A DNA stretch of 20,054 nucleotides from a virus (taxonomy: Duplodnaviria; Heunggongvirae; Uroviricota; Caudoviricetes), in the IMG/VR virus record IMGVR_UViG_2671180360_000015, positions 1 to 20,054 of that record, one strand, 5' to 3'. The translations under genes and the position numbers were made by a program. Below the pieces are notes generated by a model that worked only from the letters and a program-made list of their open reading frames with translations, made no database searches and was not told where the DNA came from. Positions within the stretch are counted from its first letter, which is position 1. Each line of letters opens with the position of its first letter. This document shows positions 11,105 to 20,054 of this stretch, piece by piece.

Positions 11105-11887
11105 TCATTTTAGAAGCCCTATTATAGCTGCAATCATACTTCCTACGCCGCCGACTGCTGCGAAAAAAGTAGCCCAAAACATTTTCTTCTGAGTACTCAA
11201 ATTCTCTCTGTACCGCACCTCATCTTTATTGAATGTAGATATTGTGTTCAGTGCCTTTCCTGTTGGCCTAAATCCACTACTTGTTTCAACAAGATCTCCA
11301 TTCTGAACAAGAGAATTCAGGCATAAACGAAGCTCTTTACGCATCCTGTTTTTATCGTCATGGTATACCCATAAACTACCAGCGACTTCGGTCATTATTG
11401 AAAACTCACTAAACACAGTTTGAGCATCCCATTCACGATACATTCTTATAATCGTTGAGAGAACAAACATCACATCAGTTATTTCTTTTTTTTGCTGTCG
11501 ATAAATATATTTTTCACGACTAAACTTTATATTTTCATAATTAGACTTTACTCTAAAGAACAACTCCCTTAAAAATGTTAAATCATTTAAAGAGTTAAAT
11601 CGCAACTCATGCGCACGGTAGTAGTAAACACCAAAAAAAGAATCAGGCGTAACCTCAGAAATATCCAAGCATGAACTTATATGAAATCTACGCTCCTCAT
11701 CATCCCATTTAAAAGCCTTTATCTTCCCATCAACCAAACAGTCAAAGAGGTATTCTGTATCATTTTTATCTTTAATATATACAGAGTACATATCATACTT
11801 AATCGCGTTTTCATATAACAAACTAATACGGCCATCATCTGGCGTTCTTTTCTTATCAAACTTCTTAAGTTGGTTTATAATTTTCAT
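11105..11887 (-). CDS. Hypothetical protein, 260 aa, soluble N-terminal domain with a single C-terminal TM anchor; candidate defence effector
   Basis: Long ORF in AT-rich DNA; C-terminal hydrophobic segment MFWATFFAAVGGVGSMIAAIIGLLK; no recognisable motif; weak SD. Confidence 0.65.
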   Translation of the reverse strand: MKIINQLKKFDKKRTPDDGRISLLYENAIKYDMYSVYIKDKNDTEYLFDCLVDGKIKAFKWDDEERRFHISSCLDISEVTPDSFFGVYYYRAHELRFNSLNDLTFLRELFFRVKSNYENIKFSREKYIYRQQKKEITDVMFVLSTIIRMYREWDAQTVFSEFSIMTEVAGSLWVYHDDKNRMRKELRLCLNSLVQNGDLVETSSGFRPTGKALNTISTFNKDEVRYRENLSTQKKMFWATFFAAVGGVGSMIAAIIGLLK

Positions 11888-11945
11888 AACATTCTCGCAG
11901 TGCTAATCTCATACGCAACAAATCTCGGTTCTGCCGCTCTAATAG

Positions 11946-11988
11946 TCAAAAAATGCCGACACCCAATTAAATATTCAGCGTCGGCATT
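11946..11988 (-). terminator. Terminator-like hairpin between the two cassette genes
   Basis: On the minus strand AATGCCGAC / GTCGGCATT 9-bp stem with 19-nt loop followed by a T-run, 9 nt after the upstream gene stop; loop is long for a canonical terminator. Confidence 0.35.
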
Positions 11989-11996
11989 GTAAGATA

Positions 11997-12770
11997 TCAA
12001 TTATCTATGATTGATATCACCTTACCAGTTTTTATATCAACACGCGCAGCAATCGTCTGTTTCACCACTCCGCCATAAGCATTAGTTCCGCGAAACGTGG
12101 TTTTCACAATGGCATGCGGGTCTTTATTCAAAACCAGATGATATACCGTTGATACATGTTTATAAGATGAATCATCGTTCATATTATCTTTAATTAGTTT
12201 TTCCAATGGACGATAAGAACCATCCCAACCACTAAAATTACTCTGAAATGTATCAAGATTGATTTTATTGTTTAGTGAATTCGGGTCATTTTCATAATCA
12301 TTAAAGCACCACCCAAGAACATCACCGAGTTTCAACTCATCATCTTTGGTAAATGTATATTCACTCATGCAGGCATAAAACGCATCTGACGCGGTGGCTG
12401 GAACTTCCTTAAAATCAATGTAACTATTCACAATATCGTGTCGTGTTTTCTTTGACTCGTTCCGATATTCCTTGAGTGTTTTTTCACCATATTCGAATGT
12501 TTTTTGGACTTTATGTTCTGCAACGGTTGATGTTTCAGTTTTATCAACTGGCTGGCTTTTTTCTGTTGGATAGAGTATTGAACCAATTATGCTCAATACA
12601 AAACCTCCTCCGAGATAAACCGCACTTGCACGTTTGCGGTTTGGCATTCGCACCAGTGATGGCTTGATTAACCCGATGAAGAAAGCAACGAAAAAAGCGA
12701 GTGATAGAAAAGCGATTATAGTATCCATAGCTATCCTTTTTGCATCATCCACATAAAAAATCGACCTCAT
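11997..12770 (-). CDS. Hypothetical membrane protein, 257 aa (243 aa from the start at 12728); two N-terminal TM helices and a ~180-aa C-terminal domain predicted to be periplasmic
   Basis: AT-rich ORF; TM1 TIIAFLSLAFFVAFFIGLI, basic loop RMPNRKRAS, TM2 AVYLGGGFVLSIIGSILY; the ATG at 12728 has the better SD (AAAGGAtagctATG). Confidence 0.65.
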   Translation of the reverse strand: MRSIFYVDDAKRIAMDTIIAFLSLAFFVAFFIGLIKPSLVRMPNRKRASAVYLGGGFVLSIIGSILYPTEKSQPVDKTETSTVAEHKVQKTFEYGEKTLKEYRNESKKTRHDIVNSYIDFKEVPATASDAFYACMSEYTFTKDDELKLGDVLGWCFNDYENDPNSLNNKINLDTFQSNFSGWDGSYRPLEKLIKDNMNDDSSYKHVSTVYHLVLNKDPHAIVKTTFRGTNAYGGVVKQTIAARVDIKTGKVISIIDN

Positions 12771-13157
12771 GTTAGCAACAGGATGCTTACTTTTGAATAT
12801 TTGTAAGTTGTTAGCTCTCCAACCTAACTCCTTTCAACCGTCAAAAACCGGCACCAACGCAGTAAAAATATGTCTGTCAACTAACGCCTCGCTACGCTCG
12901 TTGTTCAACCCCGCCAGCCCTGAAAACAAGTTTCACGACTGGCGGCGTTCTCTATCGTCTTCGTGGTGGTGGCGCAACTCTGGACTGACCGATATAGTTA
13001 AGCCGCCCGTAATTATCCCGAACTATTTCGGCACACCCGACCAGCTCATCGGGCGTCAGATTTTCGTTGACCATAATCCGCTGTAAACGCTGAACAATAG
13101 CCATCAGCTTGATATTTTTAGTTTTATGGTGCGGTATCTCGCCTGGTATTCTGTGCA

Positions 13158-13613
13158 TTATCCAAGCCACCCGTTTTGCTTTGCACGCTCCACCTGTTCA
13201 TCTGAATAGTTCCATATCCCATCCGCAGCAACCACTGCCCCGCCAGACAGCCCCGTCTCTGGTTCATACATAACAGCAAGGCCGAGCTGATGCATAATTT
13301 CATGATTAATTCTGAATACCAGACCACGTTCACTAAGTTCTTTCCAGTTCACAATCTTATATGCGCCCGTATTAAGCAGCTCAATACTTAGCAAGACATA
13401 ATCTTCCAGCCAGTCTGACAGGTCAGTAACATCTGTTATCCGGGCTTCAACCTTTCGCCCCGTAAACACACCCTGCACCCATTCATGCAAAATCAACGTG
13501 TCCCCGCGCTCATAATTACGGTCATTTTTCCGAAACTCTGCGCGTTTTTTTCCTTCCAGTACAAGGTCGAAATATTTTGCGTGCAGCTTTACCTCGTGAA
13601 TTTTTGCCATCAT
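13158..13613 (-). CDS. ASCH-like / DUF3850-type protein with C-terminal extension (151 aa)
   Basis: MAKIHEVKLHAKYFDLVLEGKKRAEFRKNDRNYERGDTLILHEW resembles the DUF3850/ASCH signature; start ATG overlaps the gpA stop (ATGA); occupies the P2 orf91 position. Confidence 0.7.
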   Translation of the reverse strand: MMAKIHEVKLHAKYFDLVLEGKKRAEFRKNDRNYERGDTLILHEWVQGVFTGRKVEARITDVTDLSDWLEDYVLLSIELLNTGAYKIVNWKELSERGLVFRINHEIMHQLGLAVMYEPETGLSGGAVVAADGIWNYSDEQVERAKQNGWLG

Positions 13614-15937
13614 GTCCACTCCATTACTGTTGAGAATCCCGGCCACTCATCAGCGACCGGATACGTGAATTTTTTCCCGTCATAATTTACGGTCGCGCCA
13701 CGCACCAGCGCCTCAAGCTCCCATCGTTGCGGCCTGATACCGTTCTGAGCGAGGTCAACGCGGATACGGGTAATTTGCAATCGTTCTGACCGGGTCAGTC
13801 TGGCCGATGGCGCTATTTCATGCGGTTTTAACGGGTTTCCGTTTCTTTGCTGACGGTTTGGTCTTCTCAGACCGTGTTTTAATGCGCTTCTGAGCGCCCT
13901 CACGACCTCCGGGTCATTCCATTCGATAACACCGTCATCAACCAGATTAAGCACTGCTGCGGCGTGCTCAGAAGGTGTGGGAGCCGGTAACGAAGCATCA
14001 CCACCGGTGAGCTTTCCACAGTTATTGACAGGACTCCGAGGCGCGGCGATGCCGCTTTTTAAAGTCAAAGGCTCAACGACCGGAACTTTCGGAACAATGC
14101 GCCAGTCCGTCGTTCTGGTGATATGAATATGACGCGCGCCGAGATGCGGCGCGTAAATGCCGACCACTCTCTCGACTTCTTCCTCGTACTCGTTAACGTC
14201 ATCCGACGGGCTACGGGCGACCCTGACAGTCTGACAATCGCGCGGGACATTTGCCCCACCCTGCGCGCTGATATACAACGCAAAATCACCACTGTCTGCG
14301 GCGGCGCGTGCAGCCTCGACGCGCTCGTCAAACTCATCAGCAATGCTGACGCCGCGCGGCAATTTGCGTAGTTCACGGTAAGCCCCCATTGTCGGCAGGC
14401 CAACCGTTTTAAATTGCGGGATGCGCCACGTTGACGCCCATGCGGTAACAGCCGCTGCAGTGTCTTTCAGCGGCCTGCCGGTGTCGTTATCGAGCTGACC
14501 ATCCAGTGCATAGCCGTCGATGTTTTTTGAAATGTATTTCGCGATATATCCCGCAGCACCGCCCCGGTTAAGGTGTTTTGCCTGAAAACGGTTTCGCGCG
14601 GCTCCTCTTTCGTCGCCATCCTCTTTGAGCGCATAGCGACGCATGATTTCGATAATCTGGTTACGCTGGCGTGAATTACAAAAAAGCATCATATGCCAGT
14701 GCGGCGTTCCGTCGTGGTGTGGCTCGACGACACGCAAACCGTAGACCTGTAAATCATTATCCTTGAATGCCGTGCGCATCAGGCTCCAGATACGGCAGAG
14801 ATAACGCTGCGCATCCTTTGGATTAAATGCCTCATCGTTCCAGCCGTGATTAAGCTGCACGGTTTTACTTTCGCCTTTTCCTACCTGACGTGTCGGGTGA
14901 TACTTTGACGGCGCGGTCAGCGTGATAAACATCCCCACATCACCCTCTGCAGCGGCGTAACGCTCAATACCGGCAATGGTGTTCATCAGCTCCATCCGGC
15001 GAATTTCAGGATTAGAAATACTGCCCATCACCTTACTGATAAGGTCGATGCGCTCGCCGGTTTCCCTGTTTTCAAGGTCACACGATTTAAGAAATTCCAG
15101 ATTTGCCTGGCGGCGCGCACGCACATCACGAATGGCGTGTTTACTGGCATAAGGAGAACGGTCTTTATTGACCTCCCCGACAGCTATCAGTAACGCTTCA
15201 TGCCAGCGCATACGCTGGCCTTTAAGCTGACTAATCCACCACTCATCGTTAAACAGGCGGGCAATGGCAGAATATGCCTGCCTCGTGGTCATCTGTCCTT
15301 TACGGTATTTTTTCCAGTAGAGCGGGGAAATATTGAAAGCACGTGCAGCGCCAGCAACATGACCATACAGATGTGCCTGCGCCTCATCCGTAAACAGCGA
15401 TTCTTTTTCACCATGCGCATCAACCCATGCATCGCAGAGTTCCTCATACATCATGAAAAGCTGCGATGAGATACGGGCGGCAAACTTTTTCAGCTCCTTG
15501 TCATTCATTCCAGGCAGGCGCGCATAGTGGTCACGCTCTGCCAGAAACAGCAACGACGCGTCGGTGTTCATTTCATGGCGCTGATTCACGCGCTCAATGC
15601 GCGGCCATAAACGACGCTGAAAAGTGGATGTGAGGAAATAAAACCCGTGTACCGGACTTTTATTGCGCCGGATGTAGTCATAGCGTGAAGTAAACAGCGA
15701 GCGCAAAAAGTAAGGCAGGCGGTTAATCGTGGATAAAACACCTTGCACCTGACGCATCTCGTCACGTGTAAGGGGTCTTTCGCGCCCGACAGCCTCGCGT
15801 GGCGCGTTCCATGCATAAGCACCAGTAAACGCCTTACCGGTGCCTGCGGCAAATGCTGACGGAGGGACAAAACGCCCGGAGGCTTTAACGGCCATATGAG
15901 CCAAAAGCCTCAGAACAACGCTTGCTGAGTTGCTCAA
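13610..15937 (-). CDS. A: Replication initiation endonuclease gpA (rolling-circle initiator)
   Basis: HUH motif in EPHHDGTPHWHMMLF; start at MAVKASG (15895) would give 761 aa, the recalled P2 gpA length; longest ORF is 775 aa. Confidence 0.9.
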   Translation of the reverse strand: MSNSASVVLRLLAHMAVKASGRFVPPSAFAAGTGKAFTGAYAWNAPREAVGRERPLTRDEMRQVQGVLSTINRLPYFLRSLFTSRYDYIRRNKSPVHGFYFLTSTFQRRLWPRIERVNQRHEMNTDASLLFLAERDHYARLPGMNDKELKKFAARISSQLFMMYEELCDAWVDAHGEKESLFTDEAQAHLYGHVAGAARAFNISPLYWKKYRKGQMTTRQAYSAIARLFNDEWWISQLKGQRMRWHEALLIAVGEVNKDRSPYASKHAIRDVRARRQANLEFLKSCDLENRETGERIDLISKVMGSISNPEIRRMELMNTIAGIERYAAAEGDVGMFITLTAPSKYHPTRQVGKGESKTVQLNHGWNDEAFNPKDAQRYLCRIWSLMRTAFKDNDLQVYGLRVVEPHHDGTPHWHMMLFCNSRQRNQIIEIMRRYALKEDGDERGAARNRFQAKHLNRGGAAGYIAKYISKNIDGYALDGQLDNDTGRPLKDTAAAVTAWASTWRIPQFKTVGLPTMGAYRELRKLPRGVSIADEFDERVEAARAAADSGDFALYISAQGGANVPRDCQTVRVARSPSDDVNEYEEEVERVVGIYAPHLGARHIHITRTTDWRIVPKVPVVEPLTLKSGIAAPRSPVNNCGKLTGGDASLPAPTPSEHAAAVLNLVDDGVIEWNDPEVVRALRSALKHGLRRPNRQQRNGNPLKPHEIAPSARLTRSERLQITRIRVDLAQNGIRPQRWELEALVRGATVNYDGKKFTYPVADEWPGFSTVMEWT

Positions 15938-16160
15938 CCTGCGCGTTTAAATCAGCAAAAGACTTTGCGCTTCCGGTCAGAATATCGTGATGCATCAGGC
16001 CGGAAACGAGCTGGCTTAATTTCGGGTAATAACCAACCACCGCCAGCCACTCCTGACCGGCGTTTTTACCGCTTTCCGCTCTCTTTTTCTCGTGGAGAAT
16101 AAACTGGAAGCTGTCACTGGTAACCACATAACGTTCGCCAATTTCAATACGAATGCTCAT
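15885..16160 (-). CDS. Hypothetical early protein (91 aa)
   Basis: ORF in early operon; ATGA overlap with the upstream TraR-like gene; lies in the P2 orf80-83 region. Confidence 0.6.
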   Translation of the reverse strand: MSIRIEIGERYVVTSDSFQFILHEKKRAESGKNAGQEWLAVVGYYPKLSQLVSGLMHHDILTGSAKSFADLNAQVEQLSKRCSEAFGSYGR

Positions 16161-16381
16161 GCCATTCTCCGGTAATGTTTGTTTTTTGCTTCAAAGACTG
16201 ACTGACAGGAAACACAACGCGTGGCTGACGGATAAGCCGCACGACGGGCAGCAGGTATTAGCGCATCACACTCTTCGCAAACCAACGCAGAAACACCGCA
16301 ATGTTTTACCCTTGCCGCGTTAATCTGGCGCTCCAGTAATTCAGCCTGTTGTTCCTGAATAAAATCTACGTTGTCCGGCAT
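16157..16381 (-). CDS. TraR/DksA-family C4 zinc-finger protein (74 aa)
   Basis: Cys pairs CEECDALIPAARR ... RCVSCQ typical of TraR/DksA C4 zinc fingers; strong SD AAGGAG. Confidence 0.8.
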   Translation of the reverse strand: MPDNVDFIQEQQAELLERQINAARVKHCGVSALVCEECDALIPAARRAAYPSATRCVSCQSVFEAKNKHYRRMA

Positions 16382-16383
16382 TA

Positions 16384-16671
16384 TCAGCTCCTTTTATCGT
16401 TCAGTTTCTTAAATTCATCAGCGCAATAGCTGGCGATTTCTGTCATTAATTTCGTCAGTTCATCCACGGATGAAATTTGCTTATGAAATACAGCGCGTTT
16501 AACAAGTAAATTGACCACATCAGACAGGAGATTTAATTTATCCGCATAAATGGCTATAGTTGATTCCACCATATCCCCAGTGTTTTTATCGCGTTTAATA
16601 TCAGCTAGCGACAAATCACCATTTTTCATGACTGAAATCTTCAGCCAGTTATTAAGCAATATATTTTTCAT
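16384..16671 (-). CDS. Hypothetical protein (95 aa), AT-rich
   Basis: ORF with ATGA overlap to the upstream gene; roughly 40% GC against about 55% backbone. Confidence 0.55.
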   Translation of the reverse strand: MKNILLNNWLKISVMKNGDLSLADIKRDKNTGDMVESTIAIYADKLNLLSDVVNLLVKRAVFHKQISSVDELTKLMTEIASYCADEFKKLNDKRS

Positions 16672-16913
16672 TCGCTATATGCCCTCTCCGCAGAATCAAT
16701 CATTTCCCGGCCATTATCGGTAATACAGAAACCTTCTCTTGATTTGGTCACAAGCCCCCATTTCCCCATTGCTATAAATGCTTTTTCCACACGACTAGGA
16801 CAGGAGCGGAAGACATCGCTTGAAGGATGTAGTGGAGTCTTGTCATCTAATTTTTTAAGTAATGAAAGTTGATAATCTGTTAAGCGTTTCCTGAACCATT
16901 TTGTATTTGTCAT
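16668..16913 (-). CDS. Hypothetical protein (81 aa from the ATG at 16913), AT-rich
   Basis: ORF in early operon; the track's longer form begins with TTG at 16919. Confidence 0.55.
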   Translation of the reverse strand: MTNTKWFRKRLTDYQLSLLKKLDDKTPLHPSSDVFRSCPSRVEKAFIAMGKWGLVTKSREGFCITDNGREMIDSAERAYSE

Positions 16914-17044
16914 CTCCAACTTCCCTGTTATTTATTGAGTCCTAGATTATGGAATTTGGCAGACTCCTGACTGAGCAACTCGACTATCTCCAGGCAAAAA
17001 GAAGCCCCGCACGATTAAGTGCGTTAAAAACTTTGGTTAATTAC

Positions 17045-17545
17045 TTAATGCAGATATTGCTCTGGTTTTACCGACGTCAGAATTGTCGGTGCATATTCAA
17101 ACAGACTGAATAATTCACGTAATGCACGGAATAAAGCATCACGCCAGTAACATGACTCTTCATTAATTCGCCAGTATGGCTGGTTGAATTCTTTTTCAGT
17201 CAATCCGGCATGCATAAATAAAGTGCGACGCTGACTGACAGTTAAAAAACTAATATATGCATACTCACTTGCGCCAACCTGACGGCGTTTTGAGAATGCC
17301 CCACGCAATTCATCAATTGCACAAACCAGCCGTTCACGTTCGACGTCGTTCATTTCTTCAAAACGCATCGTTGCGTGACGCTGCTTTAACTGCGCATGAA
17401 AGCAAACCGTTAGCCGTTCGCGCTCCATCATCTGATTATAATAATCACATGTATCCTGCCAGCGAGGGACGGCAAGATGCTTGCCAATTATCCGGCGCAT
17501 AGCTGCTGGCTGTTTTTCAACGAGATTGAGCGTCATCACTGTCAT
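17045..17545 (-). CDS. B: Replication protein gpB
   Basis: 166 aa, matching recalled P2 gpB length; position upstream of A in early operon; ATGA overlap with upstream ORF. Confidence 0.75.
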   Translation of the reverse strand: MTVMTLNLVEKQPAAMRRIIGKHLAVPRWQDTCDYYNQMMERERLTVCFHAQLKQRHATMRFEEMNDVERERLVCAIDELRGAFSKRRQVGASEYAYISFLTVSQRRTLFMHAGLTEKEFNQPYWRINEESCYWRDALFRALRELFSLFEYAPTILTSVKPEQYLH

Positions 17546-17712
17546 TTCCAGACCCTCCGGCTTTTCAGAAAGGTCAGAGCCTTTTTTAACAGACTCTGTT
17601 TTTTGGTGCGGATAATGATTCCCTTGCGTCCCTTCCCGTGGGTGATGGTGAAGTCAATCGCCCTGGGGCTTTCGTTACGCAATAACTGAGCAATACAACG
17701 AGGTTCCTGCAT
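17542..17712 (-). CDS. Hypothetical small basic protein (56 aa)
   Basis: Start MQEPRC preceded by SD CAGGAGGAGTT; stop overlaps B start. Confidence 0.5.
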   Translation of the reverse strand: MQEPRCIAQLLRNESPRAIDFTITHGKGRKGIIIRTKKQSLLKKALTFLKSRRVWK

Positions 17713-17829
17713 AACTCCTCCTGAAACAGAGCCGGTTTTTAGCCATGTCCGGCGCATGGTCTTGTGGTACTATCCAATTGCTTTCACTCCAAATGTAAGC
17801 AAGTAGTTCGTAACACAAGGAATAACGAC

Positions 17830-18006
17830 ATGAATGATTTAGAAAAAACCAAGTTTCTTTTTGAGCAGACCTGTTCAGTCATCGGTGGAGCACTTACTGA
17901 ACAATCAAGAATGCCTCTCCCTGTAGAGGTACGCATCGAGCGGTTGTTTGATGCTGTTTACCCAGTTCTTGAACGAAAGCTCGAAGAAAAACTTGGGAAA
18001 AAATAA
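17830..18006 (+). CDS. Hypothetical small protein (58 aa) convergent to the early operon
   Basis: Start MNDLEKTKF preceded by AAGGAA; possible extended -10 (TGgTACTAT) at 17763..17771; fills a 294-nt stretch with no minus-strand ORF. Confidence 0.4.
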   Translation: MNDLEKTKFLFEQTCSVIGGALTEQSRMPLPVEVRIERLFDAVYPVLERKLEEKLGKK

Positions 18007-18195
18007 TTATTTCTCGTGCTGGTAAAGAAAATCTAAAATTCCCGCGATACAGCTAATTTCTCTGCCGGACAATTGCTTACCTAAACGTCCGGCTTCTTGT
18101 TTCAGAAAGTCACCAGCCCTCACCGACAAATCCAGCATTTCTTGTGGCGTTAATGCCTCGTTATCTGCTGCAATAACACTCTGTTGTTTTCCCAT
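18007..18195 (-). CDS. Hypothetical early protein (62 aa)
   Basis: Start MGKQQ preceded by strong SD AAGGAGGtaatt; immediately downstream of the Cox-like gene. Confidence 0.55.
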   Translation of the reverse strand: MGKQQSVIAADNEALTPQEMLDLSVRAGDFLKQEAGRLGKQLSGREISCIAGILDFLYQHEK

Positions 18196-18205
18196 AATTA
18201 CCTCC

Positions 18206-18562
18206 TTAGGCCGCGTGGCCATGTCTGGATTTGCTGTAACTTATGCGATTCTTCCAGTCATGCCATTCTGTCGGAGCTTCATCGACTAGTTGAGCTGCAT
18301 ATTTGTCCCACTCACGACGATTAATCCATAACTCAGCATGACCGCCCGGCTTTAACGGGTCTGTCATATAGAATGCTGGCAGCTTTCCAGCTCGTGCCAT
18401 TTCAGCCACCGCACGAGGAGTCTTACCGATGTAAAGAGCAAAACCCTCTTTCGACAGTAAATCTGACGGATCCGCAGCCAACTTAATGGAATCACGCTTG
18501 TTTTTTTTAAGAGCAGAAACTTCTTGTCTTTTCTCGTCACAAATTTCAGATCCGACATTCAT
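18206..18562 (-). CDS. cox: Cox-like excisionase / early regulator (118 aa)
   Basis: First gene of the leftward early operon, divergent from C; segment ALYIGKTPRAVAEMARAGKLPAFYMTDP resembles the recalled P2 Cox HTH region; SD GAGGA. Confidence 0.65.
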   Translation of the reverse strand: MNVGSEICDEKRQEVSALKKNKRDSIKLAADPSDLLSKEGFALYIGKTPRAVAEMARAGKLPAFYMTDPLKPGGHAELWINRREWDKYAAQLVDEAPTEWHDWKNRISYSKSRHGHAA

Positions 18563-18665
18563 TTTGCTATCCTCACATTGATGTCAGCGATCTAGAGCGA
18601 TTTAGAGTCGTTAGATGCTGATAAATCATATCAACTATGCAAAAGAATACGAGGTTAGAGAATTT
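18563..18665. promoter_or_regulatory. Immunity switch region (Pe/Pc and operators) between cox-like and C
   Basis: 103-bp region between divergent regulators; three tandem 10-bp imperfect direct repeats at 18586..18615. Confidence 0.55.
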
Positions 18666-18965
18666 ATGTCAACTGACACTAGCGAACGTTTGAAGCTTAT
18701 CCGTGAGTCTGAACGTCTGAAAATGAAGGAGGTAGCTGAACTAGCTGGCATCAACTACACCACATATGCAGGTTATGAATCAGGTAAGGCTATGATGTCC
18801 CTAGAAAATGCTAAGAAGTTTTTTAAAGTAGAAAGGTTCAGAAAATACCGTGACTGGTTCATGTTTGATGAAACTGATCCAGCAGCTGGACAAATAGCCC
18901 CGGCTCTCGCACACATTGGGCAAGACTCAACAATCTTGCACCACTCAGACCAAAAGACTGGCTGA
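18666..18965 (+). CDS. C: P2 C-type immunity repressor
   Basis: Start MSTDTSERLK gives 99 aa as in P2 C; C-terminus GQIAPALAHIGQ...QKTG matches recalled P2 C; HTH-like N-terminal region. Confidence 0.8.
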   Translation: MSTDTSERLKLIRESERLKMKEVAELAGINYTTYAGYESGKAMMSLENAKKFFKVERFRKYRDWFMFDETDPAAGQIAPALAHIGQDSTILHHSDQKTG

Positions 18966-19058
18966 CGATTTATTCAGCATATGTGTGCAGTAAATGTACG
19001 AAAGAAAATTGCATTAATTTTCAAGTAGTAGAAGTAAACAGCGTCATCGGAGGGCTTT

Positions 19059-20054
19059 ATGTCTATTAAAAAGCTCGATGATGGTCGTTATGAAGTGGAC
19101 GTCAGACCGCAGGGTGCAGATGGAAAACGTATCAGGCGGAAATTTAAAACTAAAGGTGAAGCTCAGGCATTCGAACGTCATGTGCTGGTTAATTACCACA
19201 ACAAAGAGTGGTTAGAGAAGCCAGCCGACCGCCGAACTCTTACAGAGTTGTTAGGCAGATGGTGGATATATCACGGAAAATCACATGAGCGTGGAGATAT
19301 TGAACGAGGGCGTTTAACGACAATAATCGCCAAATTTGCAGAAATGGGAGTGTCCAGAGCAGACCAGCTAACAAAGAAAACGATAACTGATTATCGCGTT
19401 GTAATGATGAACGATGGTCTAAAACCAGCCAGCGTAAATCGGCATCTGGCAATAATGAGCGGGATGTTCACCAAGTTAATTGACGCCGGTGAATACCACT
19501 CTCACAACCCGTTCCGTGAGGTTAAGCGGTTACGTGAAGCTGTTACGGAAATGGCTTTTTTGTCCAGTGAAGAGATTACGCGGCTGTTATCCATGCTTGA
19601 TGGCGATGAATTAAATGCAACGCTGGTCTGCCTTTCTACTGGTGGACGTTGGAGTGAAGTGTCTAATTTAAAAGCTGAACACATCATTAACCAGATGGTT
19701 ACGTTTATGAAAACTAAAAACGGAAAGCGCAGGACAATTCCCGTTTCGCAGGACCTGATTAAACGGATCAAGACCAAAAATTCAGGCAGGCTTTTTAATG
19801 CCAGTTACTACAAAGTGCGCAACGCTCTCAGGGAAGTAAAACCCGATTTACCTGACGGACAGGCAGTGCATGTTTTGAGGCATACATTTGCCACACATTT
19901 TATAATGAATGGAGGTAACATAATCACATTGCAGCGCATCCTGGGTCATTCTAACATTCAGCAAACTATGACCTACGCACACTTTGCACCGGATTTCTTA
20001 CAAGATGCAGTGACTCTTAACCCGGTGTCAGGAATGTCCATAATGCGTCCATAA
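19059..20054 (+). CDS. int: Tyrosine integrase (P2 Int family)
   Basis: 331 aa; catalytic signatures TGGRWSE, HVLRHTFATHF and LGHSNIQQTMTYAHF; SD GGAGGG; follows C as in P2; stop coincides with window end. Confidence 0.9.
   Translation: MSIKKLDDGRYEVDVRPQGADGKRIRRKFKTKGEAQAFERHVLVNYHNKEWLEKPADRRTLTELLGRWWIYHGKSHERGDIERGRLTTIIAKFAEMGVSRADQLTKKTITDYRVVMMNDGLKPASVNRHLAIMSGMFTKLIDAGEYHSHNPFREVKRLREAVTEMAFLSSEEITRLLSMLDGDELNATLVCLSTGGRWSEVSNLKAEHIINQMVTFMKTKNGKRRTIPVSQDLIKRIKTKNSGRLFNASYYKVRNALREVKPDLPDGQAVHVLRHTFATHFIMNGGNIITLQRILGHSNIQQTMTYAHFAPDFLQDAVTLNPVSGMSIMRP

Follow-up and report, generated by a model that had tools for sequence, protein, structure and literature searches.

The closest described counterpart of the locus presented here is the early operon of phage P2, in which the replication gene A is expressed through the terminator that follows gene B. 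Between these two genes P2 carries the small early genes orf80 to orf83, with orf80 (DUF2732, PHROG 128) as the first gene beyond the B terminator. A paper that names the products, Orf80 to Orf83, tabulates all four as 'unknown'. P2 also encodes Cox, a winged-helix protein according to one report (PMC3936717).

Here we compare with this arrangement a P2-like locus in which two small AT-rich ORFs between B and A had been taken for inserted accessory genes that replace P2 orf80 and orf81. We consider it likely that the interval instead consists of the normal P2 small early genes (orf80-orf83), modified by a rare additional cassette and a single private deletion, and we are highly confident of the identity and evolutionary account given below for the two ORFs themselves.

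Layout of the early operon

The window, by which we mean the whole stretch of 20,054 nt that was analyzed (IMG/VR record IMGVR_UViG_2671180360_000015), is a P2-like (Peduovirus) prophage with its early operon on the minus strand. Its features in this region are as follows.

19059-20054, plus strand: int, which runs off the window end
18615-18965, plus strand: C repressor gene
18206-18562, minus strand: cox (PF10743, E 9e-29)
17542-17757, minus strand: orf78-like gene
17045-17545, minus strand: replication gene B, 166 aa, the upstream neighbor (phrog_235, E 8e-105)
16998-17023, minus strand: terminator-like hairpin and T-run 3' of B, stem 17023-17008 (hairpin scan and alignment to P2)
16928-16992, minus strand: remnant of orf80 (DUF2732) (alignment to P2, BLAST coordinates)
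16668-16913, minus strand: 81-aa gene, PHROG 11056
16384-16671, minus strand: orf81 orthologue, DUF5405, 95 aa (Pfam PF17399)
16157-16381, minus strand: orf82, 74 aa, TraR/DksA-type C4 zinc-finger protein (PF01258, E 2e-10; TIGR02419, 75 bits, above cut-off)
15885-16160, minus strand: orf83, 91 aa, second DUF5405 protein (PF17399, E 2e-13)
13610-15895, minus strand: replication gene A, rolling-circle initiator (PF05840, E 4e-123; start set by register with P2)

The two ORFs in question lie on the minus strand exactly where the original prediction had placed them, at 16384-16671 (95 aa) and 16668-16913 (81 aa), between B (17045-17545) and A (13610-15895), and both are indeed AT-rich, with a GC content of 35.8% and 40.7%, respectively, against 51.6% for the whole window. 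Their description as being chained to their neighbors by ATGA overlaps holds for the junction between the two (16668-16671), where the stop of the 81-aa ORF overlaps the orf81 start, but not for the outer junctions. The downstream end of the 95-aa ORF reads TGA-TA-ATG, leaving a 2-nt spacer before orf82, and upstream of the 81-aa ORF there is an untranslated gap of 131 nt, which contains the B terminator hairpin and the orf80 remnant.

The surrounding genes are close to those of P2. The B protein differs from P2 gpB at one residue, with 96.9% DNA identity to P2 over the B stretch, and the hairpin after B corresponds to the annotated 'putative rho-independent terminator' of P2 (P2 26980-27007). 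The junction between orf82 and orf83 is an ATGA overlap. On the basis of its Pfam match, orf83 is a distant paralogue of orf81, too diverged for BLASTP, which found no similarity between orf83 and the 95-aa ORF. A search of Rfam over the whole window returned no RNA family, and a repeat search of 15800-17600 returned only short, chance-level repeats, with no candidate operator or binding site travelling with the cassette. For window positions 12000-20054, the best match among complete E. coli genomes (APEC O78) is ~95.7% identical over 94%, and this exact prophage is thus absent from the 5,426 complete E. coli genomes.

The 95-aa ORF corresponds to P2 orf81

Sequence and position identify the 95-aa ORF as the orthologue of P2 orf81 and not as an insertion. 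It matches Pfam PF17399 (DUF5405) with 93.6 bits (cut-off 21.6) over profile positions 1-88 of 88, matches PHROG 265, is identical to P2 Orf81 at 72 of 91 residues (79%, E 3e-50), and, like P2 orf81, directly precedes the TraR/DksA-type orf82 between B and A. Over its final ~150 nt (window 16384-16530) the gene is 87-100% identical to P2 per 30-nt block, whereas the first ~45 codons (~140 nt) of the window allele have diverged, to 57-67% nucleotide identity. The window protein also falls short of that of P2 (95 vs 100 aa): its N-terminus is shorter, and it ends at a private W96stop. This stop is a private TGG>TGA change in the last codon (16384-16386), which cuts the product from 96 to 95 aa and leaves the 2-nt spacer where P2 and relatives have a TAATG stop/start overlap with orf82. 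A further private change is the substitution T76M.

The claim that two ORFs had been inserted therefore fails for the 95-aa ORF, given the 87-100% identity of 16384-16530 to P2 orf81, and survives for the 81-aa ORF, of which P2 has none. Low GC is common to the window and P2 forms of orf81 (36-37%), and AT-richness is not a mark of insertion here, because P2 orf81 itself has 37.3% GC. P2 orf80 and orf81 had been described as genes of about 80 aa with backbone GC, which is right for orf80 (74 aa, 50.7% GC) but wrong for orf81 (100 aa, 37.3% GC). Orthology to this P2 pair combined with similar composition was found for the 95-aa ORF and not for the 81-aa ORF. The comparison corrects the false impression that the orf80/orf81 pair was exchanged: orf81 is conserved, and its AT-richness is native.

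As to what this family does, PHROG gives DUF5405 (orf81/orf83) the putative label 'replication initiation protein'. A reading of DUF5405 as a DnaD/DnaB_2-like replication helper, which would rest on a 13-bit sub-threshold match together with the PHROG label, was not adopted, and an 11.9-bit match of the 95-aa ORF to PADLOC BrxC was dismissed as spurious. NCBIfam held no match for the 95-aa or the 81-aa ORF, our literature search returned no paper mentioning DUF5405, and the literature on DUF2732, Peduovirus and winged helix yielded nothing relevant.

A mosaic block and a private deletion in orf80

Alignment to P2 delimits a non-P2 block of ~425 nt (16531-16960, minus strand), in which the complete 81-aa gene is flanked by a diverged 3' tail of orf80 and by the opening ~140 nt of orf81. 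The foreign sequence thus runs from the orf80 tail to about codon 47 of orf81, with P2-like sequence on both sides, and block-wise identity to P2 outside it is mostly 93-100%. The region is ordinary phage mosaicism, and the proposed mosaic acquisition of a small accessory gene stands for the 81-aa ORF, contained in this ~425-nt block, and not for the 95-aa ORF, which corresponds to orf81.

The 81-aa ORF itself is an additional early gene absent from P2, where tblastn found no match to it. It is unrelated to P2 Orf80: it has no DUF2732 or PHROG 128 match, whereas P2 Orf80 does match phrog_128. Nor did the idea that it had replaced orf80 survive comparison with other loci. All 21 of the related loci that are readable there, and the complete E. 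coli genomes listed, have an intact orf80 ahead of the 81-aa gene. Relatives carry both genes side by side, and in every one of them the 81-aa gene is bordered by an intact orf80 on one side and by one particular allele of orf81 on the other. This allele is always the form with the diverged N-terminus, and in 20/20 related loci it is the 96-aa version that is linked to the 81-aa gene.

The apparent replacement of orf80 by the 81-aa gene is due to a private deletion of 145 nt in the window orf80, between TGGAGAAAGT (Shine-Dalgarno region) and TGGAGATAGT (codons ~50-52). The deletion is flanked by two copies of the short repeat TGGAGA(A/T)AGT and took the orf80 Shine-Dalgarno/ATG region and the first ~48 codons (two thirds of the gene). 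What persists is a start-less 3' remnant of 65 nt (16928-16992) with the last ~21 codons and the stop. None of the 21 related loci readable at this point has the deletion, and in these orf80 starts right after the terminator (locus L017, which starts too close to the 81-aa gene, was left out of the count). It is likewise absent from the top-ranked complete E. coli genomes, and in the best-ranked of these the junction query splits into two pieces spanning 240 nt, not 81 nt. This private microhomology deletion in the window may reflect genuine decay of orf80 or be an artefact of assembly.

Family and distribution of the 81-aa gene

The ORF has 81 aa when read from its ATG and 83 aa from an upstream TTG at 16919. 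Its product matches PHROG 11056, a family without a functional label, over positions 1-81 of 81 (E 1.1e-59). By tblastn the gene occurs in 2 of 50,697 phage records, only the Yersinia phages vB_YpM_115 and vB_YpM_117; these are Yersinia-plated Peduoviruses with the order B, orf80, 81-aa gene, orf81 (96 aa), orf82, orf83, A. The cassette is further found in 54 of 5,426 complete E. coli genomes, in 19 IMG/VR contigs and in E. albertii. Among 5.8 billion proteins, the family forms five 90% clusters, all from Escherichia, several of which are frameshift fragments.

One true distant homologue, P0007 (74 aa, 47% identity, E 1.4e-9), was found with HMMER among 1.84 billion representatives, and it matches phrog_11056 in turn (E 3.8e-16). 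It is encoded in the same slot of a P2-like operon (locus L023) that reads int, C, cox, orf78, B, orf80 (DUF2732), P0007, orf83 (DUF5405), A. In this divergent P2-like phage, known from a Logan assembly, L023 2742-3486 holds only orf80, P0007 and orf83 between B and A. The L023 interval has no orf81 and no orf82, which shows that each of the small early genes is a module that can be dispensed with on its own.

A flank-anchored search of the B-A interval gave full-length matches in 1,591 genomes. Interval lengths were taken from an evenly spaced sample of 60 records, 57 of them full-length: 54 have the P2 length (span 1,285-1,287 nt), and the other 3 are longer and carry the extra gene (1,519 nt). 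The B-A interval in E. coli P2-like prophages is therefore essentially bi-allelic and not a diverse cargo hotspot.

Coding status of the 81-aa ORF

Several copies of the gene are damaged. The E. albertii copies are frameshifted by an extra A in a GAAAAAG run (L003 3001-3247, L022 3001-3247), frameshifted copies also occur in some E. coli clusters, and in E. coli IHE3034 (NC_017628 968147-969742) an IS1A is inserted within the 81-aa/orf81 stretch. The E. albertii frameshifts and the IS1A of IHE3034 suggest that the 81-aa gene is dispensable in the prophage state, a reading that also follows from its absence from P2 and from about 95% of E. coli P2-like prophages.

It could be argued from these lesions that the ORF is non-functional in this prophage lineage, i.e. 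a decaying or never-expressed frame carried along with recombined DNA. Such a reading would fit the frameshifted copies in E. albertii and some E. coli clusters, the nearby IS1 in IHE3034, and the finding that near-identical copies differ by non-synonymous changes about as often as by synonymous ones; the window locus, moreover, has other private lesions, namely the orf80 deletion and the orf81 W96stop. We nevertheless consider it very unlikely. The frame is kept in the distant P0007, in the same position of a distant phage, at 47% protein identity, with pN 0.43 vs pS 0.875, synonymous sites being saturated in this comparison such that pN below pS is all that can be stated. Of the 20 related loci that span the entire ORF, 18 also have an intact frame. 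The start is preceded at 6 nt by a Shine-Dalgarno-like sequence (AGGGAAG), the ORF is joined to orf81 by the ATGA overlap, and its product has a coherent predicted fold, described below.

A predicted winged-helix fold

Modelling suggests that the 81-aa protein is probably a small, basic winged-helix protein. An AlphaFold model from the single sequence had a pLDDT of 66 and a different secondary structure; it gave only noise in Foldseek against the PDB and was set aside in favor of a model from a 5-sequence alignment that included P0007. With this alignment all five models reached a pLDDT of 68-74 (best pTM 0.62) and placed helices at 13-25, 39-51 and 66-80 and a beta-hairpin at 55-64. At this moderate pLDDT, the predicted model contains the H1-(beta)-H2-H3 core and the beta-hairpin wing of a winged-helix domain, with the second helix of the helix-turn-helix not resolved. 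Conservation is highest in the block FRSCPSxVxKA, where the turn and recognition helix are predicted, and the 81-aa protein and P0007 are both net basic (pI 9.3 and 9.55).

The database matches point in the same direction. Structure matches in BFVD include many small viral winged-helix proteins, with MotA at TM 0.74, and the sub-threshold matches to wHTH-PRTase_assc, HTH_45, Mrr_N, S19e and MotA_activ all fall on residues ~40-80. No curated winged-helix Pfam family scored above its gathering score (wHTH-PRTase_assc 15.6 bits, cut-off 27; HTH_45 14.3 bits, cut-off 25.5), and a sequence profile search of the PDB gave only non-significant matches to MotA and SSO2273.

Among known winged-helix proteins, the MarR/PadR/ArsR type (PDB 5H3R MarR, 7OYK CggR DNA-binding domain, 6EZ1 RosR) is 10-27% identical to the 81-aa protein. 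MarR has N- and C-terminal dimerization helices (about 140 aa), which the 81-aa protein lacks: it has 81 aa and one C-terminal helix, and it matches no MarR Pfam family even at E 10, which places it outside that group. A likeness can also be drawn to the P2 Cox/Xis/RDF class of small stand-alone winged-helix proteins, Cox being encoded in the same early operon. However, no sequence relation between this class and the 81-aa protein was found, the window has its own Cox (18206-18562), and no excision role is indicated. With this model, the 'hypothetical protein' of PHROG 11056 gains a predicted, structurally ordinary winged-helix fold and a fixed address between orf80 and orf81 of Peduoviruses.

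Proposed mechanism and function

We propose the following for how the cassette arose and might act. The block boundaries suggest that homologous recombination within orf80 and orf81 brought it in from a less closely related P2-like lineage; L023, which has the 47%-identical homologue in the same slot, is one such lineage. The 81-aa gene would be expressed from the early promoter Pe, with transcription reading through a weak or leaky B terminator, and translated from its own Shine-Dalgarno sequence with translational coupling to orf81 via the ATGA. The product would be a stand-alone protein that contacts DNA with the conserved FRSCPSxVxKA turn and recognition helix (residues ~35-51) as well as with the beta-hairpin wing (55-64), and could act as a dispensable accessory regulator or architectural protein in early lytic growth. 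Of the functions considered, a role as a DNA-binding early regulator is the most likely, and we put it forward tentatively, with less confidence than the fold itself. The net basic charge (pI 9.3) and the location of the most conserved block at the predicted recognition helix are indirect evidence for DNA binding. Its importance would extend little beyond annotation, and if the protein were to regulate host, satellite or competitor genes, this would be a modest addition to P2 biology.

A different target is conceivable for the same fold. The 81-aa protein could be a module like the N-terminal domain of MotA, whose target would be not DNA but RNA polymerase (sigma-70 region 4 or another subunit) and which would redirect host transcription early in infection. 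The T4-type MotA recurs as the most specific match, as phrog_1345 'MotA-like activator' (E 0.0035), as Pfam MotA_activ (E 0.25), as PDB 1I1S and 1BJA (E ~0.5, 12/32 identities) and, in BFVD, as MotA of phage Acj61 (TM 0.74, 24% identity). The T4 MotA N-terminal domain is also of comparable size (about 95 aa), with a weak sequence and structure match over residues ~48-79 of the 81-aa protein. However, none of these matches is significant, and the stretch they have in common is the generic 'GLV..G..IT..G' helix-plus-wing motif of many winged-helix families. The MotA_activ score of 12 bits lies below the cut-off of 26.1, which leaves the 81-aa protein outside the MotA-type activators; it ends at residue 81 without the C-terminal DNA-binding domain of MotA, and we identified no AsiA-like partner among the neighboring early-operon genes. 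It should also be noted that MotA belongs to a T4-like phage, whereas the 81-aa protein comes from a temperate Peduovirus. Overall we consider a MotA-like role unlikely.

Anti-defence genes are typically small and early, and the 81-aa gene is a small gene of an early operon. It is conceivable that this gene, with or without the linked orf81 allele, encodes an anti-defence or host-takeover factor which neutralizes host or satellite immunity via protein-protein interactions or nucleic-acid mimicry; it is a rare, patchily distributed accessory gene of the early operon, always linked to one orf81 allele. Against this, we found no similarity to any characterized inhibitor, the predicted fold is a basic winged helix and not an acidic DNA mimic, and the B-A interval in E. 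coli is, as described above, essentially bi-allelic rather than a diverse cargo hotspot. PADLOC, which covers defence systems and not anti-defence, had no match for the 81-aa ORF or P0007. The host takeover or anti-defence role that had been suggested for the two ORFs finds no support here, the predicted winged-helix fold being the sole functional signal, and we regard it as speculative and improbable. Of the MotA-like, anti-defence and decaying-ORF readings, we favor none.

A final, speculative variant, to which we also assign little probability, draws on the weak MotA-like similarity together with the strict linkage: the 81-aa protein and the always-linked orf81 allele might form a two-gene early module that retargets host RNA polymerase in the manner of the MotA N-terminal domain, or that silences a competitor, for example a P4-type satellite or a different prophage. 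If so, it would give a selective edge to this minority of P2-like phages.

Other differences from P2

Two further regions of the window differ from P2. Between cox and the orf78-like gene, which in P2 are spaced by 10 nt, the window has ~450 nt without counterpart in P2 (17758-18205). Within this stretch lie a 71-aa ORF (18007-18222, minus strand, phrog_12968) and a convergent ORF (17764-18006, plus strand, phrog_14615, 58-aa core). Downstream of A and of a DUF3850/ASCH gene (13158-13646), two ORFs of 260 and 257 aa occupy 11105-12770 on the minus strand, a position equal to the tin/old cargo hotspot of P2. They have no Pfam or PADLOC match, and the PHROGs that they do match, 7611 and 3403, carry no functional label; these two ORFs could be uncharacterized defence cargo.
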